From IMG/VR virus record IMGVR_UViG_3300035675_000001: a stretch of DNA of 64,000 nt. One strand, written 5' to 3'. This document shows, piece by piece, positions 15,104 through 45,891 of this stretch (positions are counted from its first letter, which is position 1; each line of letters starts with the position of its first letter). This stretch comes from a virus. Lineage: Duplodnaviria; Caudoviricetes. Both the position numbers and the translations under genes were made by a program. A model generated the notes under the pieces. It had not been told where the DNA came from. It did no database searches and saw nothing but the letters and a program-made list of their open reading frames with translations.

Positions 15104-15449
15104 CGAAATCAACCCCAAGCACATCCACTCGCTCCAGGCGACGCTCATGAAGTATCGCTCGAAGCTGGATGAGCGGAAGATCACGAACCTCTACAAAGCG
15201 GCCAAAACGCTGTTTTTCCAGAGCAACCCATCGGCGAGCTTGCTCCAGGACCAGACCATGTGGCGGTCCCGCATCGCCAACAACGCCGTCGTGATCTCGA
15301 CCTGCACCGACGTAGAAACGGGCCTGTTCATCCAGCTCGCCGGTGACCCCAACTCCCACGAGGACGCCCTGCTCCTGACCTTCGGCCAGAAGTATTGCGT
15401 CGAGTGGAAAGACGCCATGCGGAACAACGTGGCAACCAAGATTTGGTAG
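15090..15449 (+). CDS. Hypothetical protein
   Basis: 119-aa ORF coupled to rusA; typical codon usage. Confidence 0.5.
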   Translation: MLNPNEINPKHIHSLQATLMKYRSKLDERKITNLYKAAKTLFFQSNPSASLLQDQTMWRSRIANNAVVISTCTDVETGLFIQLAGDPNSHEDALLLTFGQKYCVEWKDAMRNNVATKIW

Positions 15450-25830: not shown

Positions 25831-26067
25831 ATGTCACTCACTTTATCAAAACTATCGAAGCCGGACCTGAGCGTATCTTCCGCCCCCTACCGGGTTACGC
25901 TCAAGTCCGGCAAACAATTCTTCTACAGCACCCTGCGGGAAATAGTTCATGACTTCCCGGTCAGCAGGATTGAGCAAATCTACGACCGCCACAAGCGGCG
26001 GGTCGTGGACCTGCTCAAGATCGGGCGTCGAGAAAGAAAACGTAAACATGAGCAGAAAAACGATTGA
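25831..26067 (+). CDS. Small basic hypothetical protein
   Basis: 78-aa ORF. Confidence 0.4.
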   Translation: MSLTLSKLSKPDLSVSSAPYRVTLKSGKQFFYSTLREIVHDFPVSRIEQIYDRHKRRVVDLLKIGRRERKRKHEQKND

Positions 26068-26635
26068 GCACCCCAGTTTCGGACACGTAACCATTGGCAG
26101 GCAGTCCAGCAACCGCGACCGGCTTTTCGGAGCCGCTGGCTCCAACCACAACTGCATAAGCATCGAAATCAGCGACGCGACTGTGGACGTGGATGAGGCC
26201 GAAGGCAGCTACTTCATCAACGCCAGGAAGCGCATCCTGGAGATCGCCATGACCCCGCTCCAGTTCGCCGAGGCGATTGCTTCGCTGAACTGCTCGGAAG
26301 GGTCGCCTTGCACGATCACCTGGCGGGACGGCAAGTTTCTGTCCGCGCCCGACGAACCGCCGACCACGCGCCTGGAGCACGTCGAAAAGCAGTTCCAGCA
26401 CGAGATGATCGAGCTGGGCAAAGAGTGCGACGAGTTTCTGGCCACGGCCAGGGCGCTCCGGGAGAAAGCAAATGTAAACAAAGGTGACCGGGAACAGTTC
26501 GTCAAGCTGGCCGAGGGGCTGGTCAACAAGATCACCGCCACGACCCCCTACCTCATGAAGCGGTTCACCGAGTGCGTCGAAGACCTGATGTGCGAGATCA
26601 AGGTCGATTCCAGTGCCAAGCCTCCCGGTAGTTAA
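26048..26635 (+). CDS. Hypothetical protein
   Basis: HPSFGHV.I.R...LFG...H...I.I.I.A...I.E.AMT..QFAE.I.S.N..EG.PCTI pattern recalled from phage proteins. Confidence 0.55.
   Translation: MSRKTIEHPSFGHVTIGRQSSNRDRLFGAAGSNHNCISIEISDATVDVDEAEGSYFINARKRILEIAMTPLQFAEAIASLNCSEGSPCTITWRDGKFLSAPDEPPTTRLEHVEKQFQHEMIELGKECDEFLATARALREKANVNKGDREQFVKLAEGLVNKITATTPYLMKRFTECVEDLMCEIKVDSSAKPPGS
26628..26634 (+). promoter_or_regulatory. GTAGTTA element before tail fibre 1
   Basis: GGTAGTTAAGGC-GTG, 4-nt spacer. Confidence 0.6.
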
Positions 26636-26638
26636 GGC

Positions 26639-28810
26639 GTGGCAGTCTATGCTTACTACGACCTGAACCGGGTCACCCGGTATCTGAGCGACGCCGAGTT
26701 GAACTGGCGCGGAACCTGGGCGGCGGGAACGACCTACCTGCCCGCCTCCAATGGAACGCCCGGCGACGCTGTGACCTACGCCGGGGCGATGTGGCTCGCA
26801 CTGACCACCAACACCGGCATCACCCCCACGGCGATTATGCGCCAACGGGTTTGGGCGCAGCTCGTTTACTACAAGGAGGGTTCCGTCCCGGACTACACCC
26901 CTCTGGCCCAAGCCGCTTACGACATCGCCGTCACCGGGACCAATCTCGGTTGGGACGCTCTCCACACCGCCTGGGCAGCCGGATCGCTCGCCCAAGACGC
27001 TTACGACATCGCCGTGGCGGGCACCAACCTGGCTCAAGCCGCTTACGATCTGGCCGTCACCGGGACCAACCTCGCCCTGACGGCCATCGACACCGCCAAC
27101 GGAGCCGTGGACATCGCCACGGACGCTTTGACCACGGCCTGGAACGGCACGGCGGGCGTCGATCAAGTGCTCCAGATCGCGGCCAGCGGAACCTCTGGTG
27201 CAAATTCTGCACTCCAGATCGCGGTCCAGGGGACATCTGGCGTCAATCAGCTCTATCCGATTGCTGTCGCGGGCACCAACCTGGCCCAAGCCGCTTACAA
27301 TCTCGCCGCCATCGGCACCAATGTCGGGACGAATGCCCTGAACTTGGCGACCGCAGGCAGCAACCTGGCCTGGCAGTCCTACCTGCTGGCCTCCGAAGCC
27401 AGCTTCCCGCAGATCGCCGAGGACGCCTGGAGCCTGGCCAACATCGGCACCAATGTCGGGACGAATGCCCTGAACTTGGCAACAACCGGCTCGAATCTCG
27501 CCTGGCAAGCCTACCTCCTGGCTGCTACTCCCCAGCCAAGCGACGGGCCGGTTGCCCAAGCCGCCTACAGCCTGGCTGCCATCGGCACCAACGTCGGCAC
27601 CAACGCACTGAATCTGGCCACAGCAGGCAGCAACGTCGCCTGGCAGGCCCTCGTGACCGCTCAGACGGGCACCAACGGCCTCCAGGTCATCACCCTGGAC
27701 CTGGCCGACACGGACAGCCTCGCGCAGTCGGCCTACCAGATCGCAGGCATCGGGACGAACCAGGCGCAACAGGCTTACGCCCTCGCGGCCATCGGCACCA
27801 ACGTCGGCACCAATGCCCTGACCCTCGCGCAGTCGGCCTACAACCTGGCTGCCATCGGCACCAACGTCGGGACGAACGCCCTGAACCTCGCGCAGCAGGC
27901 TTACGACATCGCCGTGGCCGGGACCAGCGCCGGGGCTGCTTTTGCGATGGCCGAAGCCGCCTACCTGCTCGCCCAGCGCGGCACGAACGCGGCCAATGAC
28001 GCCTACGCCATCGCCGTGGCCGGGACCAACGTGGCCAACGACGCCTACGCGATGGCCCAAAACGGCACCACGGTCGCCCAGGTCGCATACGAACTGGCTG
28101 TCTTCGGCACCGAAGGGGTCCAGCAGCTTTACCCGATTGCAAACGCCGGAACAGCCGGTGTCAACCAGCTCTACCCCATCGCCACGGCAGGCACGGCAGG
28201 CGTGAACCAGCTCTACCCGATTGTCGTGGCTGGGACCAACCGCGCCGATGCCGCCTACGCCTTGGCCATCAACGGAACCGAAGGTGTCCAGCAGCTCTAC
28301 GCCATCGCCAATGCGGGCACGGACCTGGCACTCCTGGCCATGACCTGGACCGGCACCAACGCCAGCCTGGCCCAAGCTGCTTACGATCTGGCCGCGATTG
28401 GCACCAACGTCGGAACCAATGCCTACACCCTGGCGACCAGCGCCAACGGGCTGGCCCAGGTCGCCTACAACCAAGCGATCAACGGGACGATTTCCACGAC
28501 CGGCACGTTGCCCACCGCGCAGGCCGTCAGCGGCACGCTCTATTTCGACTTCGCCGGATCAGCGGCTTCTTACCAAACAACCACGGTCGATCAGAACGTC
28601 TGGATCAGCGCCAAAAACCTGCAAGCTGGCCGCGAGATCGGTGTGATCCTGGTTCCCGACAACACGAATCACTGGCTGGGCTATTCCTCTTTCAAGTGGT
28701 TTGGGACGTATCCGCCCGGCACGATCTCGACGAAGGAAATTCTGATCGCCATGACCGCTTTCGACGGGAACCTCGGCAGCATCCGGGCAGCGGCCAGCGT
28801 TCAGATATGA
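26639..28810 (+). CDS. Tail fibre 1: CBM5/12-like N-terminus, long Ala-rich G-T-x repeat stalk, C-terminal beta domain
   Basis: WAAGTTY...GDAVTYAGAMW; dozens of ~14-aa AQAAYDLAVTGTN-type repeats. Confidence 0.75.
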   Translation: MAVYAYYDLNRVTRYLSDAELNWRGTWAAGTTYLPASNGTPGDAVTYAGAMWLALTTNTGITPTAIMRQRVWAQLVYYKEGSVPDYTPLAQAAYDIAVTGTNLGWDALHTAWAAGSLAQDAYDIAVAGTNLAQAAYDLAVTGTNLALTAIDTANGAVDIATDALTTAWNGTAGVDQVLQIAASGTSGANSALQIAVQGTSGVNQLYPIAVAGTNLAQAAYNLAAIGTNVGTNALNLATAGSNLAWQSYLLASEASFPQIAEDAWSLANIGTNVGTNALNLATTGSNLAWQAYLLAATPQPSDGPVAQAAYSLAAIGTNVGTNALNLATAGSNVAWQALVTAQTGTNGLQVITLDLADTDSLAQSAYQIAGIGTNQAQQAYALAAIGTNVGTNALTLAQSAYNLAAIGTNVGTNALNLAQQAYDIAVAGTSAGAAFAMAEAAYLLAQRGTNAANDAYAIAVAGTNVANDAYAMAQNGTTVAQVAYELAVFGTEGVQQLYPIANAGTAGVNQLYPIATAGTAGVNQLYPIVVAGTNRADAAYALAINGTEGVQQLYAIANAGTDLALLAMTWTGTNASLAQAAYDLAAIGTNVGTNAYTLATSANGLAQVAYNQAINGTISTTGTLPTAQAVSGTLYFDFAGSAASYQTTTVDQNVWISAKNLQAGREIGVILVPDNTNHWLGYSSFKWFGTYPPGTISTKEILIAMTAFDGNLGSIRAAASVQI

Positions 28811-29775
28811 GATTAGGACTCCGCAACTTTCAATACATCGGCGGTCTTTGGAGACCTGCTGCTGCCGGTCCTGCCGCTGTGAGCCGAGGTTACGAGTTCA
28901 ACGGTTCCACGTATGTCCGGTTCACCGGAGGAGGCGTAACCCTGGCCCACCAAGCCTACACGATTTCTGCGTGGCTGCGCCCGTCCATTCCTGGAAACAC
29001 AGGTGTTACCGTCAGAAGTGACGGCGGGCCTATGGGTTCCTGGTCGCACTCCTTAAAGCAAAGTGGATCAGTCTGGCAAAACTACACCTACGGCGGATCA
29101 GGCGGAACCACCGTCAACAGCATCACCGCTCCGATTGTTGGCACCTGGCAGCACGTCACCGCGTCCGCCACAGCCAATGGCCTGCAAAAGATTTACGTCA
29201 ACGGACAGCCGGAAGGTTCGTATCCAGTTTCGAGTCTTTGGGCGGGCGGCAATGACTATTGGCTCGCTGCTGCTTTTCCAGGTGGCAACACTCCTTTTAC
29301 CGGCCAGATGTGTGAATACGCCATCTGGAGCAGCCAGCTCAGCGACGCCGAAGTTGAACAACTGGCCACAGGCCAGCGCGGCTTGCCGCCCACCATCCAA
29401 CCCGGCACCCTGATTGTTTACATTCCGATGCAAGACACGGCAGAAGGCGTTACCGTGCCAGGCAACTACGACGAAACCCAGGGAGTGACGCAAACCAGGA
29501 CCGGAGCGCCCATCGGAAGAAACGTCACCCTTCCCTCCAATACTCCCCTTGTTCGCGTAAGCGAAGATTTCGAGTCTTACGCAGCGGGAGCTGTTGGAGA
29601 CGGCTCCGGCTTGACCGGTGGAACCGAATGGAGCGGAGCACCTGTCGTCTTCGACTGGGTTCCGACCACATCGTCAGAAGATTTCGAGTCTTACGGAGAG
29701 GGAGCTGTTGGAGACGGCTCCAGCTTGACCGCAGGAGCAAACTGGAACGGAGCACCCGTGGTAACCTCATACTGA
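28807..29775 (+). CDS. LamG/concanavalin A-like lectin domain virion protein with two C-terminal EDFESY repeats
   Basis: GTWQHVT......KIYVNG, FTGQMCEYAIWSSQLSDAEVEQL. Confidence 0.75.
   Translation: MRLGLRNFQYIGGLWRPAAAGPAAVSRGYEFNGSTYVRFTGGGVTLAHQAYTISAWLRPSIPGNTGVTVRSDGGPMGSWSHSLKQSGSVWQNYTYGGSGGTTVNSITAPIVGTWQHVTASATANGLQKIYVNGQPEGSYPVSSLWAGGNDYWLAAAFPGGNTPFTGQMCEYAIWSSQLSDAEVEQLATGQRGLPPTIQPGTLIVYIPMQDTAEGVTVPGNYDETQGVTQTRTGAPIGRNVTLPSNTPLVRVSEDFESYAAGAVGDGSGLTGGTEWSGAPVVFDWVPTTSSEDFESYGEGAVGDGSSLTAGANWNGAPVVTSY
29563..29763 (+). repeat. Two coding direct repeats, period 114 bp
   Basis: gaagatttcgagtcttac...gagctgttggagacggctcc at 29563 and 29677. Confidence 0.85.
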
Positions 29776-29777
29776 TT

Positions 29778-30473
29778 ATGGCCGCATCAATCGTTTCAAC
29801 AGCTTATGGACTGGCGCTGAATCCAGACAAGGTTCTCACGCTCGGCAACGAGGAATACGTCCGCACCTTTTCTTTCGGCTCTGCCTGGACAAAGATTCGC
29901 CTCGGCATCTGCTACTCGATTCGCTCAACCACGAGCATTGGCAGCGCCTCTTTTGTCCTGGGAGTCTGTTCTGGAAAAACCAATCCGTATGCAGCCGCTA
30001 CCACGACCAATTTCGTCGGTGTAAACTTAACGTCCTCAAACTCTTTGACCGGAACGATTACGGCAAATTACGGCCCTCCGTGGTATGCAAGCATGAGCGG
30101 AACGGTCGTCATCAAACGATCCGGGAGCACCACAACTATCGGCAATGGCAGCGGGTCCATTCTCTACGGCCACTACACGGCTGCCTCCCTTCGAGCCTTC
30201 ATGATTGTGGACATCACCAAAGGAAGTCCGAACTACACACTCAGCGTTTTCCGATACGTCAACGTCTTTAACCCCTACTTGGACACGGCGATGTTCACTG
30301 CCGCCCTGAACTCAATTTCAGACCCACCGACCAACGCACTCGCTCAGATGAGCGGAGTGACCATTGCCTGCGACGAGTCTGCGGGAGCTTTTGACTGCTT
30401 CGACCTCTTTTGGAACGATTCGCCCAACCCGCTGGATGTCGGATACCTGGGCGCAACCCGCCTCGTTATCTGA
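29778..30473 (+). CDS. Tail-associated paralog family, member 1
   Basis: LTLGNEEYVRTFSFGSAWTKIRLG ... FDCFDLFWND. Confidence 0.65.
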   Translation: MAASIVSTAYGLALNPDKVLTLGNEEYVRTFSFGSAWTKIRLGICYSIRSTTSIGSASFVLGVCSGKTNPYAAATTTNFVGVNLTSSNSLTGTITANYGPPWYASMSGTVVIKRSGSTTTIGNGSGSILYGHYTAASLRAFMIVDITKGSPNYTLSVFRYVNVFNPYLDTAMFTAALNSISDPPTNALAQMSGVTIACDESAGAFDCFDLFWNDSPNPLDVGYLGATRLVI

Positions 30474-30513
30474 AATCGCCTTTGTCAACATTCTCAATGG
30501 GCTGGATCAGGGT

Positions 30514-30520
30514 GTAGTTA
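30514..30520 (+). promoter_or_regulatory. GTAGTTA element before tail fibre 2
   Basis: GTAGTTATGGC-GTG, 4-nt spacer. Confidence 0.6.
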
Positions 30521-30524
30521 TGGC

Positions 30525-32648
30525 GTGGCGACGCAGACGCAATATGCTTACGCCGATAGCTCATTCCGGCGAGTTGTAATCGCGGAAGCGGAACTCCATC
30601 TACGGGGAACCTATTCCGGGACAACGAATTATGGGCCGCTTGACGCCATCGACTACGGCGGTGCCAGATACAACTGCCTGGTTTCAGTTTCCGGGACCGC
30701 ACCGGAGGGAAACCACTCAGATTTTTGGTCGATCCTGAGCCTTATCAACCAAGGCCCAGTCGATCCCTACGCCCAACTCCGAGAGGAGATTGACGCAGCC
30801 CAAAGCACGGCGAACAGCGCGATTTCTGGAGCTGATTCCGCCTTCGATCTGGCCTGCATCGGGACCAACGTCGGCAGCAACGCCTACAGCCTCGCCCAGC
30901 AGGCTTACGACTACGCCCTCCAGGGCACGGCGGCGGGGGCCGCTTTGGCGCTCGCCCAGGTCGCCACGAACACAGCAGACCTCGCCCTGGCCATCGCCTG
31001 CTCCGGGACCAACGGCGTCGTCCAGGTCAGCTACATCGCTGAATCTGGCACGGCAGGGGCCAACCAGGCTTTCCAGCTCGCCACGCAAGGCACTGCCGGT
31101 GCGGACCAGGCTTACTACCTGGCGATGCAGGGCACCAACGGGGCCAACTTCGGAATTTCTCTCGCGGGCGTGGGCACCAACCTCGCCCTGCTCGCCCTGG
31201 AGTGGCTGGGCACGAACGAGCAGATGGACGCCTCGATCCGCGAGGCAGCCTGGAGCGGCACGGCAGGGGTCCAGCAGGTCTATCCCATCGCCAACGCCGG
31301 AACGGCAGGCGTCAACCAGGTTTACCCGATTGCCAACAAGGGCACCGAGCTGGCGATCCTGGCCCTCTCCTGGCTCGGCACCCTCAGCCCGGTTGACCAG
31401 GGCGCTCGTGACGCCGCCTGGTCGGGCACGGCTGGCGTCGAACAGCTCTACCCCATCGCCAACAGCGGCACGGCAGGGGCCAACCAAGCCTTCTACCTGG
31501 CCACGCAGGGAACGAACGGGGCGAACTTTGGCATCTACCTCGCCTCCCAGGGGACCAGCGGTGCCAACGACGCCTACTACCTGGCGACCCAGGGCACCAA
31601 CGGCGCGAACTTCGGCATCTTCCTGGCCGGGCAAGGAACAGCAGGGGTGAACCAGGTTTACCCGATTGCCAACAGCGGAACAGCCGGAGTCAACCAGCTC
31701 TACCCCATTGCGAACAGTGGAACGGCTGGCGCGGAGCAGGCGTTCTACCTGGCGACCCAGGGCACGAACGGAGCCAACTTTGCGATCTACTTGGCAGGCG
31801 TCGGCACCGACGCAGCGGCTTACGCGCTCCAGATCGCCATGATGGGGACGGAGAGCGCGGCGGGCGGAGGAGCCTTGGCCTACACGGCATACCTGATCGC
31901 CGTCAACGGCACCAACGGCATCTTCCAGGTCTATCCGATTGCGAACAGCGGGACAGCCGGGGTCAACCAGGTCTTTCCCATCGCCAACTCAGGAACGGCA
32001 GGCGTCGAGCAGGTCTTCCCGATTGCCGTCAACGGCACCGCAGGCATCCCGCAAGTCAGCTACATCGCGGAGTCGGGCACATCCGGGGCCAATGCCGCCT
32101 TCGCTTTGGCCGTCGCGGGCACGGTCCTGAACGCCTACGTCCTGACCTGGCTGGGCACGACCATCGGCCTCACGGGCACCGGCACGCGCTCGATGTTCAT
32201 TTCGCAGGTGCAGAACGCCCGCACTGACGTAAAAATCACGATCCAAAACGGTCTCGTCACGTCGTTTGGAGAATCCTCGGCGAGCGTCGAAACTTTCGAC
32301 AATTACACCCCAGGCCCGCTCACCAATGGTCCGGGAGAGCTGAACCTGATGAGCTACTGGTATGGCACCGGCAACATCAACGGCGGCTACCTGCAAGCGA
32401 CAGTCTCCAACGATGCTTATGTCTCCAGGGACAGCATCCAGAGCTACGCCGTTTTTGGAACGGTCATCGGCCCCATCCCCGGACCTGGCACCTTGGCTGG
32501 AGGCACGTATTGGTCGAGTTCATGGAACGCCGGGAGCGTAGCCATGAATTACACTGAGGACACCCTGGCTACTTATGCTGCGGGCACGATCACAGTCGGC
32601 CAGATTAACGGCGGTGTCGGCTGGGGCAGCGATGGAATTGTGAACTGA
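30525..32648 (+). CDS. Tail fibre 2 with G-T-x repeat stalk and C-terminal (D/E)xFxxY repeats
   Basis: DAIDYGGARYNC; repeated QVYPIANSGTAG and AFYLATQGTNGA. Confidence 0.75.
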   Translation: MATQTQYAYADSSFRRVVIAEAELHLRGTYSGTTNYGPLDAIDYGGARYNCLVSVSGTAPEGNHSDFWSILSLINQGPVDPYAQLREEIDAAQSTANSAISGADSAFDLACIGTNVGSNAYSLAQQAYDYALQGTAAGAALALAQVATNTADLALAIACSGTNGVVQVSYIAESGTAGANQAFQLATQGTAGADQAYYLAMQGTNGANFGISLAGVGTNLALLALEWLGTNEQMDASIREAAWSGTAGVQQVYPIANAGTAGVNQVYPIANKGTELAILALSWLGTLSPVDQGARDAAWSGTAGVEQLYPIANSGTAGANQAFYLATQGTNGANFGIYLASQGTSGANDAYYLATQGTNGANFGIFLAGQGTAGVNQVYPIANSGTAGVNQLYPIANSGTAGAEQAFYLATQGTNGANFAIYLAGVGTDAAAYALQIAMMGTESAAGGGALAYTAYLIAVNGTNGIFQVYPIANSGTAGVNQVFPIANSGTAGVEQVFPIAVNGTAGIPQVSYIAESGTSGANAAFALAVAGTVLNAYVLTWLGTTIGLTGTGTRSMFISQVQNARTDVKITIQNGLVTSFGESSASVETFDNYTPGPLTNGPGELNLMSYWYGTGNINGGYLQATVSNDAYVSRDSIQSYAVFGTVIGPIPGPGTLAGGTYWSSSWNAGSVAMNYTEDTLATYAAGTITVGQINGGVGWGSDGIVN

Positions 32649-32649
32649 T

Positions 32650-33387
32650 ATGGCAGTCATTAGCAGCAGAGTTTATGGCGACGGAACCAGCGTTCTGATG
32701 CGGTTGCAGAACGAGGAGTTCATCCGCCAGTTTTCCTGGCTGAACGGCTGGCAGCGATTGCGGATTGGCGTGCTGTGGTCGGTCCAAGGCAGCGGCACTT
32801 TCACTTTGAACAACGCAGGGGTCGGCATCGCCAGCTCGGCCAGCCCGTTCTCAGCGACGCTGGGATTCAAGTCGTCCTCCTGCAAAAACGCCATGATCCA
32901 GGCCGTCTCCCTGGATGATGTTTACAGCCCGACCAGCTACGTTTACAACGCGGGCGGCGGCATCCCCTACTACAGCATGACCTTCACGGGAGCTTCACGA
33001 AAAGTTGGAGCGACCTGGGCGGGTGGAGGAGGAAACGGCACCCAATACTTCATGGCCGTGGCTGGCGCTGCGCGGGGATTCTTCTTTGCTGATTTCTGGA
33101 AAAGCGGACTCAGTGGCATGGGCGGGTATTCCTACCTCCCCACCAGCGCGGCGTTGGCGCAGACCAACTGGACGATGAACGACATCTACTACGGGTGCCA
33201 GCAAGCCAACATGGACAGCCTGATCTTGAGAGGAACAACCATCACGCGAACTGCGGGAGGGCAGGGCGACAGCAGCGCCCTTGAAACTGCCGGAGTTTAC
33301 GATTGCCTGAGTATTTGGTGGGATAACGCCGCCGTGCCGCTTGAAATTTACGGCATCGCCGCTTTTGGAGTCCCACTCACATCATAG
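32650..33387 (+). CDS. Tail-associated paralog family, member 2
   Basis: MRLQNEEFIRQFSWLNGWQRLRIG ... YDCLSIWWD. Confidence 0.65.
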   Translation: MAVISSRVYGDGTSVLMRLQNEEFIRQFSWLNGWQRLRIGVLWSVQGSGTFTLNNAGVGIASSASPFSATLGFKSSSCKNAMIQAVSLDDVYSPTSYVYNAGGGIPYYSMTFTGASRKVGATWAGGGGNGTQYFMAVAGAARGFFFADFWKSGLSGMGGYSYLPTSAALAQTNWTMNDIYYGCQQANMDSLILRGTTITRTAGGQGDSSALETAGVYDCLSIWWDNAAVPLEIYGIAAFGVPLTS

Positions 33388-33389
33388 CT

Positions 33390-34106
33390 ATGTCAGCCGT
33401 TATTGGACAACGAGTTTTTGCGGTTGGCGGCAACCAGGTTTACCTGTCGTTGCGCCAGGACGAATACATCCGCCCGCTGGCCATTGGCTCGGACTGGACT
33501 TGGCTCAAAATCGGCCTTCTGTTCAACATCGTTGGACCGCCCGGAACCCTCGCCTACTCTGATTTCGGCATCGGCGTCTGCAACTACAGCCTGCTCGGAC
33601 CCCAGGGGCTTTTATCCTGGTCGTGCCCAAACTGGTATGGCCGAACATTCAACGCCACGGCTGGAGGCATTGTCACCTACACCGGAGGAGCCAATCCTTA
33701 CTACAACATGAGCGGAACGTATCGCTCTTACCGGCAGTTCAAATCTCGCGGCTGGTGGGGAGGCAATGTGACCACCAAGGCGATGGCCGCAGGCGGAACC
33801 GGCGCACTCCAGCGCCGAAGTATGCACGTTGTTGAAATCGTCAAAGGCACAGACGGAACGCGGGGCTACGGCACGACAACAGCAGGGCTGGTGGTTCAAG
33901 ACTGGACCTTCGACAACCTGCTCGAAATCACCGAAATGTATAACCAGACCCCCTACGTCGGAGCAACCGCCATGCAAGGCGATGAAGCCAGCGGCACGGG
34001 CGCACAGAACGACAACGCAGGGCCGTTGGACGCGATCTCTGTCGCCTGGGCCGCAGCCAACGCGACCCTCGATATTTACGGTATCGTGGTCTATCGAGTA
34101 TATTAA
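33390..34106 (+). CDS. Tail-associated paralog family, member 3
   Basis: LSLRQDEYIRPLAIGSDWTWLKIG ... LDAISVAW...YRVY. Confidence 0.65.
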   Translation: MSAVIGQRVFAVGGNQVYLSLRQDEYIRPLAIGSDWTWLKIGLLFNIVGPPGTLAYSDFGIGVCNYSLLGPQGLLSWSCPNWYGRTFNATAGGIVTYTGGANPYYNMSGTYRSYRQFKSRGWWGGNVTTKAMAAGGTGALQRRSMHVVEIVKGTDGTRGYGTTTAGLVVQDWTFDNLLEITEMYNQTPYVGATAMQGDEASGTGAQNDNAGPLDAISVAWAAANATLDIYGIVVYRVY

Positions 34107-34108
34107 CT

Positions 34109-35755
34109 ATGGCCCAAATCGCTATAAGGCTATTTAATTACATTCCCGACCACTACGTGTTGTTGGGTGGAGAGGAATGGCTTCGGCCCCTGGGTCGGCT
34201 GGGCGACTGGAATCGCATCCGGCTGGGATGTCTCGTCGCCATCCGGCCCAACAGCACAGCCTCGATTTACAATGCAACTTTCACGGTCGGTTTGACCAGC
34301 GGGCGCTACGGCACGACTTCGGGCCACATCGCAGACAATGCCATCGGCATGTGCCTGTGTGGAAATCCCACTCCGCCAAACCTGCGGAATTGGAGCTACA
34401 ACGCCAACTCTGGCTACCCTTACTACGACGTAAACCAAACCGGCCAGTTCTTCCACCGCTACACCAATCCGGTCACCAACGCTCAGACGTATGTGCTCGC
34501 GGCCTCATCGAGCAATAATTTCGGCATCCCGGTCGCTGGAATCGGCTACCGCAAACGCCGATACCCCTTCGTCCTGGACATCCAGCGCACAGGTTCGCTC
34601 TACTCATTCAGGATGCACTTCCCAGGCAACAGTGCCACGATTCTGGCACAAGACTGGGACGCTGGAAAACTGATGGACGCGGTGATGCAGACGAGCGCCA
34701 CGATCATCACCGACAACGATACCTGGTCCTCATCAGCCAACTCGCTCCAAGCCAGCGAAATCAACGGCGCATTCGACACGTTCAGCATCTACTGGAGCCG
34801 TGCAACTTATCCGCTGGAGCTTTACGCCGCGTGCGCCTGCCTGCTCTCCGACAACAACACGCCGCAGAGCACCTACAACCCATTCACGCCAGGCGGATAC
34901 GACTACTACACCGGAGCGCCGGTGGGTAATGCCGCAGGCGTCAACAGCGGCAAAGGCTGGGTCTCCGGCTACAGCTTCCAAGGGACGAGTAACAGCACGC
35001 CTGCTTTCGGCATGGCAGGCACTTCGACCGGCCTCGACGATCCATTCGAGCAGTATGCTTCCGGCACGGCGCTAAGCCTGGCTCTGGCGGCGGGCACCAA
35101 CTGGCCGACAGGTTTCGTCATCGCAGGCACCTATCCCAACCTCAACCCGATCACAGGAATCGGAACTCAATTCTATGGGACCACGGTCGGGATGGACGAC
35201 CAGTTTGACCAATACACCAACGGCACTGTCCTGACCGGAGCCACTTACTACGGAACCAACTGGAACAGCGCCCTCCTCATCGCGGGCACTTACCCCAACC
35301 TCAGCCCGATCACCGGCATTGGAACGCAGTTCTACGGAACCACAGTCGGGATGGACGACCAGTTTGACCAGTATGCCACTGGAACTGTCCTGACCGGGGT
35401 GATGAACGGAGGAACAAACTGGGGCGGTGCGTTCCTGATCGCAGGCACCTACCCCAACCTCGTTCCCTACACCGGCACCGCGTTCTACGGAACCCAAGTG
35501 TTCCCCTCCGATACCTTCGAGACTTACCAGGTCGGCAGCATCGCGGTCATGGCTAATGGCTCGAACTGGGGCGGAAATTTCAATGCCCTCTGGTATGCGG
35601 GCACGACCTATGGAAATACGTCGGCCCAACTCGACATGGGCGGCACGAGCGTCGGGTCACCCTGGGACAGCATGGAGCAGTATTCGCTGGGCACCATCAC
35701 GCAGCTCAACCAGGGCACCGGCTGGGGAAGCTATGGAACCTTTTTCTCTTACTGA
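34109..35755 (+). CDS. Tail-associated paralog family, member 4, extended by five D.FEQY repeats
   Basis: LLGGEEWLRPLGRLGDWNRIRLG ... FDTFSIYWS, then DDPFEQY / DDQFDQY repeats. Confidence 0.65.
   Translation: MAQIAIRLFNYIPDHYVLLGGEEWLRPLGRLGDWNRIRLGCLVAIRPNSTASIYNATFTVGLTSGRYGTTSGHIADNAIGMCLCGNPTPPNLRNWSYNANSGYPYYDVNQTGQFFHRYTNPVTNAQTYVLAASSSNNFGIPVAGIGYRKRRYPFVLDIQRTGSLYSFRMHFPGNSATILAQDWDAGKLMDAVMQTSATIITDNDTWSSSANSLQASEINGAFDTFSIYWSRATYPLELYAACACLLSDNNTPQSTYNPFTPGGYDYYTGAPVGNAAGVNSGKGWVSGYSFQGTSNSTPAFGMAGTSTGLDDPFEQYASGTALSLALAAGTNWPTGFVIAGTYPNLNPITGIGTQFYGTTVGMDDQFDQYTNGTVLTGATYYGTNWNSALLIAGTYPNLSPITGIGTQFYGTTVGMDDQFDQYATGTVLTGVMNGGTNWGGAFLIAGTYPNLVPYTGTAFYGTQVFPSDTFETYQVGSIAVMANGSNWGGNFNALWYAGTTYGNTSAQLDMGGTSVGSPWDSMEQYSLGTITQLNQGTGWGSYGTFFSY
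35120..35500 (+). repeat. Coding tandem repeats, period 159 bp
   Basis: atcgc(a/g)ggcac(c/t)ta(t/c)cccaacctc at 35120, 35279 and 35438. Confidence 0.85.
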
Positions 35756-35758
35756 GCA

Positions 35759-36436
35759 ATGGCCATCATCGTCAACACTATCGTTGGAGAGCAGCAGCTC
35801 GAACTGAGAAACGAGGAGCTGCTGCGGCAGATGCCCTGGGGCAACGACTGGCGCTTTATCCGCCTGGGCTTGCGCTGGAGCGCCCAAATGTCAGCCACGC
35901 TGACGAACTTCAACATGATGATGGGGTTCAACGCAGGGACCACCTACGGCTATCGCAGCGCCAACACGGTGGAGTTCATCGGAACCTGCGTCGGCGGCGT
36001 GTCCAAAAGCACCTGGACCTACGCGGCTGGACCGCCTGCCTACTGGTCGTCAAACTGGTATCGCTACTCATATAAAGTCGGAGCAACTGAGTCGATTACC
36101 CAATCAAGCTCTCAGACCTCCTATGGCCCCATCGCTCCCAAGCGCGGGCTGATGTATTTCGATCTGCAAAAGGGCAGCGGCAACACGCTCAATCTGGTCT
36201 GGCAGACTCCGACCAATCCGACAACCGCTCAAACTGACTTCACGGTCGATCAGTTTTATCGAATGATGGAAGTGGATTACGCTCCAACCTTTATCTCAGG
36301 CTGGGCTATAAGCACAAACGCCATGACCTCCTGGGCTTACGCGGGCACCTACCCGTTCGATTCCGTCTCAGTCTCCTGGGACAACGCCATCAACCCGATC
36401 CTGATTTCCGACATGGCGGTAACCCGGTTTTATTGA
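35759..36436 (+). CDS. Tail-associated paralog family, member 5
   Basis: LELRNEELLRQMPWGNDWRFIRLG ... FDSVSVSWD...VTRFY. Confidence 0.65.
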   Translation: MAIIVNTIVGEQQLELRNEELLRQMPWGNDWRFIRLGLRWSAQMSATLTNFNMMMGFNAGTTYGYRSANTVEFIGTCVGGVSKSTWTYAAGPPAYWSSNWYRYSYKVGATESITQSSSQTSYGPIAPKRGLMYFDLQKGSGNTLNLVWQTPTNPTTAQTDFTVDQFYRMMEVDYAPTFISGWAISTNAMTSWAYAGTYPFDSVSVSWDNAINPILISDMAVTRFY

Positions 36437-36437
36437 T

Positions 36438-37124
36438 ATGGCTTTCATCACCCAAACTTACGTCGGAGACAACACCCTCCAGCTTGGCATGGAGGAGTTC
36501 GTGCGCCCGATGGCATTTGGTGCCCAGTGGCGTAAAATTCGCATCGGCTTGCTCTTTGGCGTTTACGGAAATCCTGGCGTGAACACCAGCGTTTATGCTG
36601 GAAGCAACGTCAATCTCTATGTCGGAGTTTGCCAGGGTGTGAACAGCGGATTCAGCAATCCCACTCCCACGGACGCCATTGTTCTCGCCCCTTTCACTTC
36701 TAATTCGGCCCTGAACTATGCCACTACGACTTACTGGTCCGCTGGCTTGAACCCTGGCCGTCTGATTTGGAAATATGGCAGCAGCACTACGACGGTCACA
36801 GGCGGTTCCAACAGCATCTATGGATTTATTCCTCCTAACCGAATAGCCTGGTTTTTCGACTTCGCCATGAATCCCCGCAACGCCTCCTCGGCGCTGCTGA
36901 CTCCCTCGACGTGGATCACCTACACCACACCGTCGAACGTGAGCCGATCCCAATTCCTGGCCTCCATGCAAAACGAAGCTGATCCTGCTCTGAACACGAG
37001 CAACCTGCTATCCGCCTCGCTGACTTACGCTGGAAACTTTTTGCTCGATTCGGTCTGCGTTTGGTGGACGCGCTCAATCCCAACCTTGCTGATAAGCGAA
37101 ATCAGCGTAACTCGTTTTTACTAA
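36438..37124 (+). CDS. Tail-associated paralog family, member 6
   Basis: LQLGMEEFVRPMAFGAQWRKIRIG ... LDSVCVWW...VTRFY. Confidence 0.65.
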   Translation: MAFITQTYVGDNTLQLGMEEFVRPMAFGAQWRKIRIGLLFGVYGNPGVNTSVYAGSNVNLYVGVCQGVNSGFSNPTPTDAIVLAPFTSNSALNYATTTYWSAGLNPGRLIWKYGSSTTTVTGGSNSIYGFIPPNRIAWFFDFAMNPRNASSALLTPSTWITYTTPSNVSRSQFLASMQNEADPALNTSNLLSASLTYAGNFLLDSVCVWWTRSIPTLLISEISVTRFY

Positions 37125-37125
37125 T

Positions 37126-37815
37126 ATGGCATACATCGTTCAAAATCTGCTCGTGCCTGACACCCGGCTCCAACTGGGCTGCGAAGAAATTCTCCGCACC
37201 ATGAATTTCGGCATCCAGTGGACTAAAGTTCGCCTGGGCATCCGGTTTTTTGTCCAAGGTGGATCAGCGTTCAACGGAGGCAGCCTTTACGGCGGCGTGT
37301 GCCAAGGCAACAAAGGCTACTCCGCCGTGGACTGCACAGACGTTCTGGCTGCCTGGTTTGGCGCTTCTTCCAACATGCCGAGCGTAGGCTGGATTTACGG
37401 CACAAACACCTTCACCGTCAATTCCGGCGTGAATTTTGTCAGGAAAGTTGGAGCCGTGTGGACCGCAAATCAAGCCACCGGCAGCTATCCCGTCACCTTG
37501 GCCGCGCAGCCCGCCACCAATGTCCTGAACTCAGTTTACTGGGATTTCACTAAACTCTCAGCTTCGACCGTGCAGTGCAGCCAGTGGGCACCTTACAGCA
37601 CATCCGCCAGCGTCAACATGACCCGATACAACCACCTGGCTTCGATGGAAAATGAGCTGTCTCCGGGGACGTTTTCTTCTGCCTACTATCAAAACACAAC
37701 ACCTGCCATGAGCGTTGCCGGAAGCTCCCAGCTATGGGACACTGTTTTTGTGGGCTGGGGAAGAACATGCCCCAACGTCGAGATTCACGACATCACCGTT
37801 CTTCGCTTCTATTAA
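37126..37815 (+). CDS. Tail-associated paralog family, member 7
   Basis: LQLGCEEILRTMNFGIQWTKVRLG ... WDTVFVGW...VLRFY. Confidence 0.65.
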   Translation: MAYIVQNLLVPDTRLQLGCEEILRTMNFGIQWTKVRLGIRFFVQGGSAFNGGSLYGGVCQGNKGYSAVDCTDVLAAWFGASSNMPSVGWIYGTNTFTVNSGVNFVRKVGAVWTANQATGSYPVTLAAQPATNVLNSVYWDFTKLSASTVQCSQWAPYSTSASVNMTRYNHLASMENELSPGTFSSAYYQNTTPAMSVAGSSQLWDTVFVGWGRTCPNVEIHDITVLRFY

Positions 37816-37816
37816 C

Positions 37817-38545
37817 ATGGCCTTTATTGTCCAACGCCTGACGCTCAGTAACCGGCTCCAACTGGCCAAGGAGGACATGATCCGCCCCCTGTCCTTCGGC
37901 ACAAATTGGAACTCGCTGCGGATCGCGGTGCTCATTCAGATCAACCACGCTACAAGCTGGCAGACTGCCACAGGCTATCCGTTCCTGGCACTGGGCGTGT
38001 GCTTGGGCAATAGCCCCATCTTCGCCGGTGACACCACGGTCGATGCTTTTGGATGGGGAGCGGGCAACACCGGACCTACCTGGACAAGCGGGCTAGTCAC
38101 TTGGAGCGCGACTTACAACAGCTTTGCCTCGCCCGCTGGCGGAGGAACTGCTTTCCAGAAAATCGGCTCGTCTATCGTTGCCAGCAATCCAGTAACCGGG
38201 AGCGGCTATACCCTGCAAATGGGAGGCATGAGTTCCCCTGGAGGCACCACTTACCTGAATCGAACTCCCATTTACCTGGACATCACGCGGGGCTACCCAG
38301 CTACCCCCGCGATGAACAACTACACCCTGCTCTGCAATGCCCCATACTCCAACCAAGGAGTTGACCTCGACCCCGGCACTTTTTACGACCGGTTGCAGAC
38401 CTCGACCTTGACCGGCACTCAGATTCAATACAATTCCACGCTGACCGTAACCGGCAACATGCTTTGGGATTCGGTGTTCTTCTCCTGGCCGCGCTTGACG
38501 CCCACTGTTGAAATCGTTGAGCTGGCAGTCGTGCGCTGGGGTTAA
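37817..38545 (+). CDS. Tail-associated paralog family, member 8
   Basis: LQLAKEDMIRPLSFGTNWNSLRIA ... WDSVFFSW...VVRWG. Confidence 0.65.
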   Translation: MAFIVQRLTLSNRLQLAKEDMIRPLSFGTNWNSLRIAVLIQINHATSWQTATGYPFLALGVCLGNSPIFAGDTTVDAFGWGAGNTGPTWTSGLVTWSATYNSFASPAGGGTAFQKIGSSIVASNPVTGSGYTLQMGGMSSPGGTTYLNRTPIYLDITRGYPATPAMNNYTLLCNAPYSNQGVDLDPGTFYDRLQTSTLTGTQIQYNSTLTVTGNMLWDSVFFSWPRLTPTVEIVELAVVRWG

Positions 38546-39007
38546 TCACCACAGCCCAACCGGGCAGTATTCCGTGGCCAGACCCGCCTTGGTGTAGCAG
38601 ACACACTTGCAGTATTGGCAGTAGTAGCCCTTGAACTGTCCACACTTGTTACTCTGGCAGACCTGGTAGCGTTGCGCGTGGTCCGCCTTGGACATGACCG
38701 GCATCCCCGCCGCGATCCACCGAGCCATTGACTCCTCAAAATTCTTGACGACCTGCGGCCAGGTGAGCACCGGCAGCGCATTGGGGTCCACTGGCGCACC
38801 GCAGCCCGCGCACCCGCCCGTCCCTTTTGGTTTGACGACCCTGCCGTTGTCCGGCGCGTAATCTGCCGACAGGATCGGCTCGAACTTACGCATGGGGCAC
38901 CCAGCGGAACTCTGGAGCGCGTGCCCGCGCAGACAGACGCCATCCCACTCGGAACAGACCTTGCAATGCTGCTCCAAACGAAAGTAGAAGATTTCTCTCG
39001 GAATCAT
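38546..39007 (-). CDS. Cys-rich protein (DUF6171-like C-terminus)
   Basis: CKVC, CAGC, CQSNKC...CQYCKC..K.....CP.G.W. Confidence 0.6.
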   Translation of the reverse strand: MIPREIFYFRLEQHCKVCSEWDGVCLRGHALQSSAGCPMRKFEPILSADYAPDNGRVVKPKGTGGCAGCGAPVDPNALPVLTWPQVVKNFEESMARWIAAGMPVMSKADHAQRYQVCQSNKCGQFKGYYCQYCKCVCYTKAGLATEYCPVGLW

Positions 39008-39090
39008 AAATGTTTACAAACAAATTCTTAACTTTTTCTTGGCCTTGAATCCTTTTTGTCCACCTTGGTCAAGTAGGTAGCGCAGAGATT

Positions 39091-40065
39091 ATGGCCTGGA
39101 TTATCGAAAGCCCGGCAATGCGCCGTGTGCATGAACTGACGAAGCAAATCGGACCTTCCACGGCTCCTGTGCTGATCTCTGGTGAGACAGGCACAGGCAA
39201 GGAAGTGATCGCCGAGATGATCCAGTTTTATAGTGAACGGAAGAACAGTCCCTTCATTCGCGTCAACTGCGCGGCCATCCCCAAAGACCTCCTGGAGTCC
39301 GAACTGTTCGGCTCGGTGCGCGGTGCCTACACCGGGTCCATTGTGGACCGGCGCGGGCTGTTCCAGGCAGCGGACACGGGCACGATCTACCTCGACGAGC
39401 TTTCCGAGATGACGTTCGACTTGCAGGCCAAGCTGCTTCGCGTCGTCGAGAACCAGATGATCCGGCGCGTGGGCGACACGGTGTGGAACAAGGTGGACGT
39501 GCGGATCATTTCGTCGATCAACCGGCCTCCCGATCTGTGCGTCGAACTCAAAGTCCTGCGCGACGATCTCTACTACCGCATCGGCACGTTTCACATCCGG
39601 GTTCCCGCGATGCGGCAGCGCGTGCCCGACATCCTGCCGCTCTGCCGCGCCTACCTGGAGAAGTATAGCGCCGAACAAAAGCGCGTGCCGCCTGTCCTCA
39701 GCCCGGAAGTCGTGGCCATCCTCCAGGGCTACCACTGGCCCGGCAACGTCCGCCAGATCGTCAACGAAATGCACCGGCTTGCCGTCATCAGCAAGGCCAC
39801 TGCGCTCCCGGAGGACATCGACTTTCATCTGCAAAAAGAACCTGATTTCAACACGCCGCTGAGCCGCATGGAGCTGATGGAGAAGACCACCATCGAGAAC
39901 GTCCTGATCGAAACCAACGGCAACAAGCTCGAAGCCGCCAAGCGACTGGGCATCGGAAGACAAACGCTCTATAACAAGCTTCACCGCTACAACATCGAAA
40001 CGATCAAAGAAAAACCGCCAGGCGACGAATCACCTGGCGGCAACCAACCCTTCCCTTTGCCGTAA
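39091..40065 (+). CDS. Sigma-54 enhancer-binding protein (AAA+ plus Fis-type HTH, no regulatory domain)
   Basis: GETGTGKE, VNCAAIP..LLESELFG, GAYTGS, IYLDE, DLYYRI, WPGNVRQ, GNKLEAAKRLGIGRQTLYNKL. Confidence 0.92.
   Translation: MAWIIESPAMRRVHELTKQIGPSTAPVLISGETGTGKEVIAEMIQFYSERKNSPFIRVNCAAIPKDLLESELFGSVRGAYTGSIVDRRGLFQAADTGTIYLDELSEMTFDLQAKLLRVVENQMIRRVGDTVWNKVDVRIISSINRPPDLCVELKVLRDDLYYRIGTFHIRVPAMRQRVPDILPLCRAYLEKYSAEQKRVPPVLSPEVVAILQGYHWPGNVRQIVNEMHRLAVISKATALPEDIDFHLQKEPDFNTPLSRMELMEKTTIENVLIETNGNKLEAAKRLGIGRQTLYNKLHRYNIETIKEKPPGDESPGGNQPFPLP
40006..40040 (-). terminator. Probable intrinsic terminator for the minus-strand lipoprotein/holin-like operon, embedded in the bEBP 3' end
   Basis: CCGCCAGG-N10-CCTGGCGG followed on the minus strand by TTTTTCTTT. 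Confidence 0.65.
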
Positions 40066-44235: not shown

Positions 44236-45187
44236 GCTGAAACAACTGCGGCCTATCGACGCGCCGGTCACGACAGCGCCTTGGCGAAAGCCAAAGGCGG
44301 ATGTCAAAGATTTACCCGCGCCCCCATCCGCCCCCAAGCCTCCGGCGCAGCCCCCGTCTCCCCCTGCGCCGGAGGCCCAGGCGGAACCCAAGAAAAAGAA
44401 GGGCAAGGCCAAAGCTCAGGCCGAGGCTCCCCCGCCGCCCCCGCCGCCCAAACAGCCGGTGGAGGCACCCCAAATCGACGCGCCCAAGGCCGCGCCCGTT
44501 GAAGTCGAAGTTGTAAACAACGGCAGCCACATCCCGATCCCGATGCCCTACCAGCCGGTCCCGCTGCTGGAAGCCCTGGCGTCGCAGAACCCCATAGTCG
44601 CGGGCGTCATGATCCGGCAGCTCCGCGATCTCCAGGGACCACCCCCAAACACCAGCGACGGAGTGCTGGTGACGATGGGCAAGCTGGCCGATGGCTTCAA
44701 AAACGGTAGGGACGTGTCCGACCAGATGGAAGCCGTGGCGCTCCACCTGACCGGGCGAGGCGACCGGCGTGAACTCCAAGCAGAGCTGGCCGACGTGCTG
44801 GACGACGAGCGTGTGATCGAGATATTCAGGAGCCGGTCCAAGTTTGAGGACTTCCTCCACGGCTGCCTCCGGCGCTCCGACATCAGCGTCACCGAGGGCA
44901 TCGCGGTCCAGGCTTACTTCAATGCCGAACTGGACAAGATTTTCAGCCGCCGATCCAAGCGGGGTTCGGGAGATTTGGTCAGCGGGCGCGAGCCGCATGA
45001 ACTCGTCACCAAGTCCAATCTGCCTGCCCAGCTCCACCGGAAGGAGCTTCAACACAAGTTCAATGACGCTTCACCCCAGGAACGTGAAATTCTGCGGAAG
45101 CTTGGGTTCAAAGTGCAGACAATGGTCGCCGCCAGGCTGACGCGGACCACGACTGAAACTGTCGAACTTGTTGAACCAGAAACGTGA
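44228..45187 (+). CDS. Hypothetical protein with Pro/Lys-rich N-terminus
   Basis: ATG at 44228 overlaps the previous stop; helical C-terminal domain. Confidence 0.55.
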   Translation: MAELKQLRPIDAPVTTAPWRKPKADVKDLPAPPSAPKPPAQPPSPPAPEAQAEPKKKKGKAKAQAEAPPPPPPPKQPVEAPQIDAPKAAPVEVEVVNNGSHIPIPMPYQPVPLLEALASQNPIVAGVMIRQLRDLQGPPPNTSDGVLVTMGKLADGFKNGRDVSDQMEAVALHLTGRGDRRELQAELADVLDDERVIEIFRSRSKFEDFLHGCLRRSDISVTEGIAVQAYFNAELDKIFSRRSKRGSGDLVSGREPHELVTKSNLPAQLHRKELQHKFNDASPQEREILRKLGFKVQTMVAARLTRTTTETVELVEPET

Positions 45188-45891
45188 CTCTGAAACCGAT
45201 CAAGGGAATCTTCGACGCCGCCCTCGCAGATGATCCGAGAATCACCAAGGCAGGCAGCTACGCGCTCAATACGACAGGCGGCTGCCAGCAGACCTACGTC
45301 CTGAGCCGCACCGTGCTGGAACGCCGCATCCCAGGCGTCTTTGTCGAATGCGGCACAGCCTACGGCGCTCAGTTGGCGATCATGGCGATGGCGATGGAAA
45401 GGCTTAACGACCGCCGAGAAATTCACGGCTACGACTCATTCGCTGGTATTCCTTGTGCCGGGCCAAAAGACAGTCTCCAGCCAGGCTTGGGTGGGTTTCA
45501 GATGGACCGCAACTTGCCCCTGGAAAAACGCCTGGTCGGAACAAAGTCAATGGTCGCCGACCACGACACCTGCCGGGAGATGTTCTACGCCTGGAAAATC
45601 CCCGGCGTCACGCTTGAGCTGCACAAGGGCTGGTTTCAGCACACTCTGCCAGACAACAAGCTTGGCACCATCGCCTTCCTCCGCCTGGACGGCGACCTCT
45701 ACGAATCCACGGAAATCTGCCTGCGCTACCTCTACGACAAAGTGGCTCCTGGAGGAATAGTCTATGTGGACGACTGGTGCCTGAGCGGACCCGCCAGCGC
45801 CGTTGAAGAACTGTTCGAGGAGCGCAAACTCACCGCGCCGATATACCAAGACAAAGGAGGGTGCGTCGGAGCGGCCTACTGGTTCAAATGA
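45184..45891 (+). CDS. TylF/MycF/NovP-family O-methyltransferase
   Basis: PGVFVECGT..G, GYDSFAG, KGWFQHTLP, IAFLRLDGDLYEST, PGGIVYVDDW. Confidence 0.9.
   Translation: MTLKPIKGIFDAALADDPRITKAGSYALNTTGGCQQTYVLSRTVLERRIPGVFVECGTAYGAQLAIMAMAMERLNDRREIHGYDSFAGIPCAGPKDSLQPGLGGFQMDRNLPLEKRLVGTKSMVADHDTCREMFYAWKIPGVTLELHKGWFQHTLPDNKLGTIAFLRLDGDLYESTEICLRYLYDKVAPGGIVYVDDWCLSGPASAVEELFEERKLTAPIYQDKGGCVGAAYWFK

Follow-up and report, generated by a model that had tools for sequence, protein, structure and literature searches.

Concanavalin A-like paralogs linked to a C-terminal repeat motif beside the tail fibers of an uncultivated jumbo phage: candidate docked subunits of the virion

Introduction

One phage with several diverged binding modules is a known theme, and the known cases are large tailspikes with N-terminal anchors. 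Branched receptor-binding complexes have been described for KP32, K11, and KP34, podophages of Klebsiella, with a branching domain and a conserved docking peptide (PMC13352976), for the tailspike complex of the Ackermannviridae (PMC11414711), and for Alcyoneusvirus RaK2/phiK64-1 (PMC10253068). In these systems, diverged binding proteins are encoded next to each other and are thought to hang on one primary fiber via a conserved docking element, and a member with docking sites of its own provides higher-order branching. The secondary receptor-binding protein (RBP), a large trimeric tailspike, has the docking peptide at its N terminus, and the socket is a T4 gp10-like/XD domain on the primary RBP. 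Here, we analyzed a 64,000-nucleotide stretch of viral DNA (IMG/VR record IMGVR_UViG_3300035675_000001; Duplodnaviria, Caudoviricetes), called the window below, in which eight diverged genes (m1 to m8), most encoding proteins of about 230 amino acids (aa), lie beside tail fiber genes. The adjacent coding and the presumed branched hanging would be common to this locus and the systems above. In contrast to them, the repeated peptide is here C-terminal on the carrier, and the socket would be a whole small subunit with a predicted concanavalin A (ConA)-like fold. We found no sequence relationship between the window family and the branched RBP systems, and a search restricted to the sequence level gave no Pfam or PHROG match to the T4 gp10-like/XD branching domain in the fibers or in the Laminin_G_3 (LamG) protein of the window.

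Other described systems resemble the locus in part. The carbohydrate-binding modules (CBMs) of phage baseplates and tail tips (J-1 Dit CBM2, TM4 gp23, and Douge) have the same ConA-like sandwich (structural Z scores of 9.7 to 11.3) and a tail-tip location on the virion; some prophage members of the present family precede the baseplate hub. Whereas those modules are covalently inserted in or fused to a structural protein, the window proteins are separate polypeptides paired with a motif on a structural protein, and their identity to the J-1, TM4, and Douge modules is below 10%, with no family-level match. Cohesin and dockerin provide an analogy only, in that a short duplicated C-terminal peptide has, or here would have, a small beta-sandwich partner and the repeat number sets, or here would set, the number of subunits carried. 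The scaffold repeats of cellulosomes are beta-sandwich cohesins, whereas the carrier repeats here are peptides with no Ca-binding dockerin signature, and neither carriers nor paralogs matched the cohesin or dockerin signatures of Pfam. The genes for gp38 of T2/S16 and Tfa of Mu and P2 directly follow a fiber gene, and their products likely act on the fiber C terminus and may aid receptor binding; the present family differs from them in its fold, in having no Pfam match, in its many copies per fiber, and in also following nonfiber carriers. The tail operon of Chi-like phages likewise ends in a tandem array of old paralogs of a virion protein with a lectin shape (Chi gp072 to gp075), but these proteins (320 to 409 aa) are unrelated in sequence to the window family. 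We rejected a relation between the two, as hmmsearch with filters off gave Chi 071 to 075 at most 1.7 bits, with mostly negative scores; the family also had no match in PHROG, in which PHROG 2448 holds tail paralogs of the Chi gp32-34 type.

We report that the paralogs are coupled to a repeated motif at the C terminus of the protein encoded directly upstream. In our favored reading, m1 to m8 are single-domain ConA-like accessory subunits of the virion that are docked onto the C-terminal motif repeats of their carriers, and we put the probability of this at roughly 0.55. The broader claim, that the family is a virion-associated accessory or binding protein, we regard as quite probable.

Results

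The paralogs and the motif upstream of them

The eight paralogs proposed in the earlier note are all open reading frames (ORFs) on the plus strand, and a family hidden Markov model (HMM) detected exactly eight copies in the window.

29778-30473, plus strand: m1, 231 aa, subfamily A ConA-like protein
32650-33387, plus strand: m2, 245 aa, subfamily A; ortholog of L017 m1
33390-34106, plus strand: m3, 238 aa, subfamily A; ortholog of L017 m2
34109-35755, plus strand: m4, 548 aa, extended member; ConA-like core at 34109-34852 plus five motif copies
35759-36436, plus strand: m5, 225 aa, subfamily B; ortholog of L017 m4
36438-37124, plus strand: m6, 228 aa, subfamily B; the protein used for the structure model
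37126-37815, plus strand: m7, 229 aa, subfamily B; ortholog of L017 m6
37817-38545, plus strand: m8, 242 aa; forms an old lineage of its own with L017 m7

Pairwise BLASTP comparisons gave E values from 1e-25 to 1e-3 (0.1 for one pair), with many full-length alignments and an identity of 21 to 34% over the full length. These values and alignments indicate real homology rather than composition in common, the doubt that the earlier note had attached to its proposal. The conserved ends and divergent middles that it described were recovered as well: conservation peaks at residues 1 to 40 and 201 to 228 and is lowest at about residues 45 to 60 and in several stretches within 80 to 200. Columns without any variation occur among the first 40 residues (A2, I4, L, R, and W) and the final 30 (G, D, and W). 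Likewise, the last seven genes are as tightly packed as claimed (gaps of 2, 2, 3, 1, 1, and 1 nucleotides [nt] from m2 to m8), with 1 nt between fiber 2 and m2 and 2 nt between the LamG gene and m1. All three stop codons (TGA, TAG, and TAA) are used across the array, and the reading frame shifts between genes, which rules out a recoded stop codon or a polyprotein; m1 to m8 are probably separate, translationally coupled genes.

The likely attachment element is a C-terminal motif of about 35 aa on the upstream protein, which the earlier note had missed; the repeats that it did see extending m4 are five copies of this motif. The consensus is [DE]xF[ED]xYxxG...LxxGxGWxG...[IV] (alignment A4), and 1 to 9 tandem copies usually reach the very C terminus of the carrier. 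Three proteins in the window carry it, the third being m4, in which part of the extension is a recent 159-nt tandem repeat.

28807-29775, plus strand: LamG carrier, 322 aa from an ATG that overlaps the fiber 1 stop; Laminin_G_3 domain (Pfam E value of 1.5e-21)
29548-29652 and 29662-29766, plus strand: LamG motif copies (motif HMM E values of 2e-12 and 2e-11)
30525-32648, plus strand: fiber 2, 707 aa, repeat stalk with three motif copies at the C-terminal end
32274-32381 (weak), 32418-32531, and 32544-32645, plus strand: fiber 2 motif copies (motif HMM E values of 4e-2, 2e-4, and 1e-11)
35024-35125, 35183-35284, 35342-35443, 35495-35590, and 35651-35746, plus strand: m4 motif copies

At the junctions examined first, the motif ended the gene directly upstream of a family member in 9 of 9 cases. 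The carriers were fibers (L001, L005, and L017), proteins of 120 to 170 aa in head-connector or tail modules (L009, L011, L012, and L013), the LamG protein, and extended family members, and a six-frame ORF search of the window and the loci with the motif HMM gave no matches beyond carriers. We then turned to a second set of loci, obtained independently of the first junctions. The family was present in 9 of 301 genomes of the Verrucomicrobiota host's order, which yielded 15 new full-length loci. The HMM found the motif directly upstream in 11 of the 15 (one of them a fusion, see below), three others had two diverged upstream copies visible by eye (GxGF variants), and in the remaining one the motif was internal, in a LamG protein. 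A motif-bearing gene also lay upstream in L036 and L039.

The LamG protein offers a natural experiment for this linkage: it has two motifs in the window, where m1 follows, and its orthologs in L017 and L005 have neither the motif nor a following family member. Furthermore, at L032 (positions 1495-2772, minus strand; Verrucomicrobiota-order genome G484, contig C83) a single open frame encodes both motif and domain, with a linker of two residues between them, which is a Rosetta-stone fusion. The 426-residue frame of L032 begins with a hydrophobic leader bearing an LPVC lipobox-like site and continues with about 110 residues, a single motif copy, and the ConA-like domain; the protein may have come from the phage module and be a surface lipoprotein of the cell. 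As to the origin of the motif, the idea that it copies the domain's own N-terminal hairpin was unsupported (hhalign probability of 0.6%), and the motif region had no relative among PDB sequences.

Tail fiber chaperones classically sit immediately downstream of a protein with a conserved C-terminal element. The paralogs could accordingly be read as assembly chaperones or maturation factors like Tfa, gp38, and gpU, which would fold or trimerize the C-terminal motif region of the fiber and may or may not stay on the virion. The array indeed begins directly after a motif-ended carrier, 1 to 2 nt from it, and one would expect the motif-domain linkage just as much from a chaperone-client pair. However, up to 11 diverged copies per phage, in a number that tracks the motif number, are unexpected for a catalytic chaperone, and a stable cis fusion such as L032 also speaks against this role. 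The family, moreover, follows small nonfiber carriers (120 to 170 aa) and occurs in head-connector modules, its predicted fold is that of binding modules, and no similarity to the Caudo_TAP or gp38 families was found with Pfam and PHROG for the paralogs and 150 relatives. We therefore consider a chaperone role unlikely.

Motif number and paralog number

To compare the two numbers, we counted as followers the family genes after a carrier up to and including the next carrier, using 12 carriers from jumbo phages.

Window, LamG protein: 2 motifs, 1 following paralog
Window, fiber 2: 3 motifs, 3 following paralogs
Window, m4: 5 motifs, 4 following paralogs
L001, fiber: 2 motifs, 2 following paralogs
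L001, m2: 3 motifs, 3 following paralogs
L005, fiber: 3 motifs, 4 following paralogs
L005, m4: 3 motifs, 3 following paralogs
L005, m7: 2 motifs, 2 following paralogs
L005, m9: 2 motifs, 2 following paralogs
L017, fiber: 3 motifs, 3 following paralogs
L017, m3: 4 motifs, 4 following paralogs
P0010: 9 motifs, 7 following paralogs

The numbers were strongly correlated (Spearman coefficient of 0.95 with the relaxed motif count and 0.85 with the strict count) and agreed exactly in 8 of the 12 carriers (permutation P of about 4e-4). A carrier added afterwards, in L038, had 4 motifs and 3 followers. The surplus motif of m4 coincides with the recent 159-nt tandem duplication.

Occurrence in other phages and prophages

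Related phage contigs of 220 to 250 kb have arrays of 5 to 11 copies after fiber genes, and the window layout (a fiber and then clustered family members) recurs in L001, L005, L017, and the P0010 contig. Across phages, the copy number ranges from 1 to 11. Single copies were found in prophage-like regions of Verrucomicrobiota and in one metagenome-assembled genome of Dehalococcoidia.

L001: 1,230-aa protein, then 5 copies (232-kb phage contig)
L005: LamG_3, 349-aa protein, 868-aa fiber, then 11 copies, then a sigma-54 activator
P0010 contig: 10 copies
L017: 7 copies, then the same 152-aa gene as in the window
L009, L011, and L013: single copy between the major capsid protein and the head-tail adaptor Ad1
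L012: single copy in a lambda-like tail module, following the tape measure protein
L022 and L024: single copy immediately before the baseplate hub protein (Phage_BR0599 / Gp84_N)
L040: T4-like contig with the family near gp21/gp23-like head genes

Every context examined was a virion morphogenesis module. The presence of the family in head-connector modules also means that the placement strictly at tail fiber tips, as suggested earlier, does not hold. Could the proteins instead be nonvirion products, for example, host surface or defense-related factors that ride in late operons? The single fused homolog from a bacterial genome (L032), with its lipobox-like leader, suggests cellular surface use. 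But the contexts are all morphogenesis modules, with fibers, the protein upstream of the baseplate hub, and head-connector proteins as partners, and direct reading of the sequences revealed no signal peptide or transmembrane segment in the phage copies. A nonvirion role is thus very improbable.

The Verrucomicrobiota elements in L009 (499-8566) and L011 (1926-11482) encode, in order, a portal, a scaffold, a major capsid protein, a small motif carrier, a family member, the Ad1 adaptor, two further genes, and an integrase. This side of the contigs, which are cut, showed no tail genes, and the layout recalls capsid-forming satellites.

Predicted fold

An initial AlphaFold2 model built from eight sequences was poor (predicted local distance difference test [pLDDT] of 58) and was superseded by a model of m6 from a 150-sequence alignment (A3). 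The latter had a pLDDT of 90.2 and a predicted template modeling (TM) score of 0.88, and it was all-beta, with 15 strands and one helix. VIA-align matched it to ConA-like lectins and CBMs at Z scores of 10 to 11.3, with a root mean square deviation of about 3 Å over 140 to 170 aligned residues. The matches included the baseplate protein of mycobacteriophage Douge (8zdo_a), legume-lectin-like domains, ERGIC-53/VIP36, and galectins; the receptor-binding domain of TM4 gp23 (9n6a) scored 10.0, and CBM2 of the phage J-1 Dit (5ly8) scored 9.7. All Foldseek matches in PDB, AFDB, and ESM Atlas were ConA-like, and BFVD contained one true relative (A0A516LLJ0; TM score of 0.77). With high confidence, the family is thus predicted to be a ConA-like lectin/glucanase beta-sandwich at the fold level. 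The structure search scores form a plateau of tied ConA-like matches; they assign the fold without pointing to a specific family or function. The lectin-like surfaces put forward in the earlier note are therefore supported as a predicted fold. The conserved termini, which the same note had taken as an attachment scaffold, map to six predicted strands within the single domain (E3-8, E11-16, E19-24, E33-43, E205-210, and E216-226; three short strands near the N terminus, a long one, and the final pair of the sandwich), so a separate scaffold is not what the ends appear to form.

The family is large. A profile search of 1.84 billion representative proteins returned 1,614 clusters at an E value of ≤1e-3 and 1,181 at ≤1e-10 (metagenomes; clusters at 50% identity). 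No Pfam (E value of ≤0.1), PHROG, or NCBIfam model matched the 8 paralogs or their 150 best relatives, nor did the named families of the ConA clan (Laminin_G_3, Lectin_legB, Gal-bind_lectin, and others) match the 8 paralogs and 150 diverse members at an E value of ≤0.1. The family profile hit only compositional antibody matches among PDB sequences, a word-index protein search with the same profile returned only 8 matches, and IMG/VR pattern scans based on m6 and the m4 core found no relatives.

ConA-like folds are also used by enzymes, and matches at similar scores included PL7/PL14 alginate lyases, an ulvan lyase, GH16, and glutamic peptidases. The paralogs might then be glucanases, lyases, or peptidases that act as virion-borne depolymerases or modify the motif. 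Nevertheless, the columns conserved in at least 90% of the 150-sequence alignment (L, R, W, R, G, G, and W) contain no catalytic-type residue set, 0 of 150 members match an enzyme family in Pfam, and the lectin and CBM matches score equally or better. An enzymatic role therefore seems quite improbable.

Order and divergence of the arrays

Phylogenetic trees resolved two old subfamilies (A and B), with the extended members as a further clade. All arrays of the window, L001, and L005 have the order carrier, A-type, extended A, and B-type. L017 and L038 largely conform to this order too; L038 m4 departs from it, as it belongs to the extended clade but has no extension. Each of m2 to m8 has a one-to-one positional ortholog in L017, the most closely related phage (support of 100/99). 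These orthologs share 31 to 45% identity, compared with 58 to 63% for three flanking genes downstream of the array and 40 to 53% for the other genes of the fiber module (LamG, the fibers, and a 228-aa protein); array members diverge faster than flanking genes. The earlier note had offered two alternatives, a built-in repertoire or a hetero-oligomeric fiber head. Old, ordered, and orthologous paralogs fit a defined hetero-complex better than a freely exchangeable cassette repertoire, which favors the second of these over the first.

The same order and orthology would be expected if the paralogs were fixed structural parts of a hetero-oligomeric knob, or of a complex at the baseplate periphery, with no ligand role of their own and with a divergence that reflects old subfunctionalization. 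Tight translational coupling, which suggests coexpression, would fit as well. This explanation, however, is hard to align with the spread in copy number among phages (1 to 11) and the lineage-specific duplications, with orthologs that diverge faster than the flanking genes, and with receptor- or carbohydrate-binding modules as the nearest structural matches from phages. On balance, purely structural subunits appear improbable to us.

Neighboring genes and the phage

The gene order around the array is a 228-aa protein, fiber 1, the LamG protein, m1, fiber 2, m2 to m8, a convergent 152-aa gene, and a sigma-54-type activator. Fiber 1 is as follows.

26639-28810, plus strand: fiber 1, 723 aa, Ala/Gly/Thr-rich 14-residue repeats; C-terminal motif absent

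Its N terminus has a weak match to PHROG 5073 (tail fiber protein; E value of 9e-4), and it is 46% identical to a 475-aa protein of L017. Both fiber genes contain 42-nt (14-residue) Ala/Gly/Thr-rich repeats (26903-27072 and 31256-31723), with related units common to both, and metagenome contigs break within these repeats and within the m4 repeat.

Directly after the last paralog lies the 152-aa Cys-rich gene (window positions 38546-39007 and L017 positions 14798-15256, both minus strand; 58% identity), which has a weak match to PHROG 13558 only; the P0010 contig has a gene of equal size and orientation at this position. A receiver-less sigma-54 activator (Sigma54_activat, AAA_lid_14, and HTH_8) is encoded just 3' of the array in the window (39091-40065, plus strand) and in L005 (18792-19883) and is absent from L017. 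The sigma-54 promoter consensus was not enriched in the window (20 matches versus 36 expected), and scans for sigma-70 promoters and terminators near the array operon gave background levels. About 7 to 12 kb downstream of the array are genes for a TylF-like O-methyltransferase and a cytidylyltransferase-like protein (45184-45891 and 49985-51142, plus strand), possibly with sugar-modifying functions. An AcrVA2-like protein (precomputed Pfam match) is encoded about 8 kb upstream of the L001 array (L001 1203-2309).

The window also encodes a Baseplate_J protein and many other phage-like proteins. The m6 gene is present on a 222-kb contig, and DNA of the region was found in wetland metagenomes of two studies; together with the phage genes, these observations point to an uncultivated jumbo phage. 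Identical contigs of 26000-39500 occurred in the wetland metagenomes of the two studies, sampled in 2019-2020 and 2022, indicating that the phage population persisted with an unchanged array. The contigs of four wetland runs across the region were identical and of low depth and showed no informative variation, and no RNA run was found among the sequencing runs with this DNA.

Discussion

The coupling of motif and domain suggests how the paralogs may be attached. Each motif copy would be a docking site for one lectin-fold subunit. On this view, m2, m3, and m4 would sit on the three motifs of fiber 2, m5 to m8 on the five motifs at the end of m4 as a second-order branch, and m1 on the LamG protein, which has two motifs. 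The fiber ends would thereby bear diverged binding domains in a branched bouquet. Physical docking, its stoichiometry, the virion location, and ligand binding are the parts of this scheme that we infer. The purpose of the bouquet would most likely be the recognition of host surface glycans, as suggested by the predicted fold, its use at the tail tips of other phages, and the more rapid divergence of array members.

Several observations weigh against docked glycan-binding subunits. The counts are inexact for the LamG protein (2 motifs to 1 paralog), m4 (5 to 4), P0010 (9 to 7), L038 (4 to 3), and the single-copy prophage loci (2 or 3 to 1). The carriers come from related phages, so the P values overstate independence, and the relaxed motif threshold was set after the data had been seen. 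In L040, two of the three members have no motif-bearing gene before them. Adhesins and fixed structural subunits are equally compatible with one-to-one orthology kept over a long divergence, and a predicted lectin fold by itself does not establish sugar binding. Finally, no cultured phage with the family was found, as megablast (10 kb) and tblastn (three members) searches of 50,697 phage records returned nothing.

A more tentative idea is that the window represents a general plug-and-socket appendage system, undescribed so far, in which each copy of a carrier's C-terminal FxxY...GxGW repeat binds one free-standing ConA-like subunit. The carrier could be a fiber, a tail-tip protein upstream of the baseplate hub, or a head-connector protein. 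Second-order branches would arise wherever a subunit has terminal repeats of its own, the repeat number would set the size of the tree-like lectin bouquet, and new specificities would be gained by duplicating a repeat together with a gene.

What is new here is a family of about 1,600 clusters (50% identity), large yet unnamed in databases, that is coupled to a previously unnoticed motif on its upstream neighbor. The family pairs with a countable peptide repeat across very different virion modules, in Verrucomicrobiota prophages, and in one Dehalococcoidia assembly. If the repeat is a docking site, the pairing would put a name to a widespread dark-matter family and allow the subunits on a fiber, both their number and their order, to be predicted from the DNA sequence. 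It would also account for the way in which uncultivated jumbo phages assemble composite organs of host recognition.

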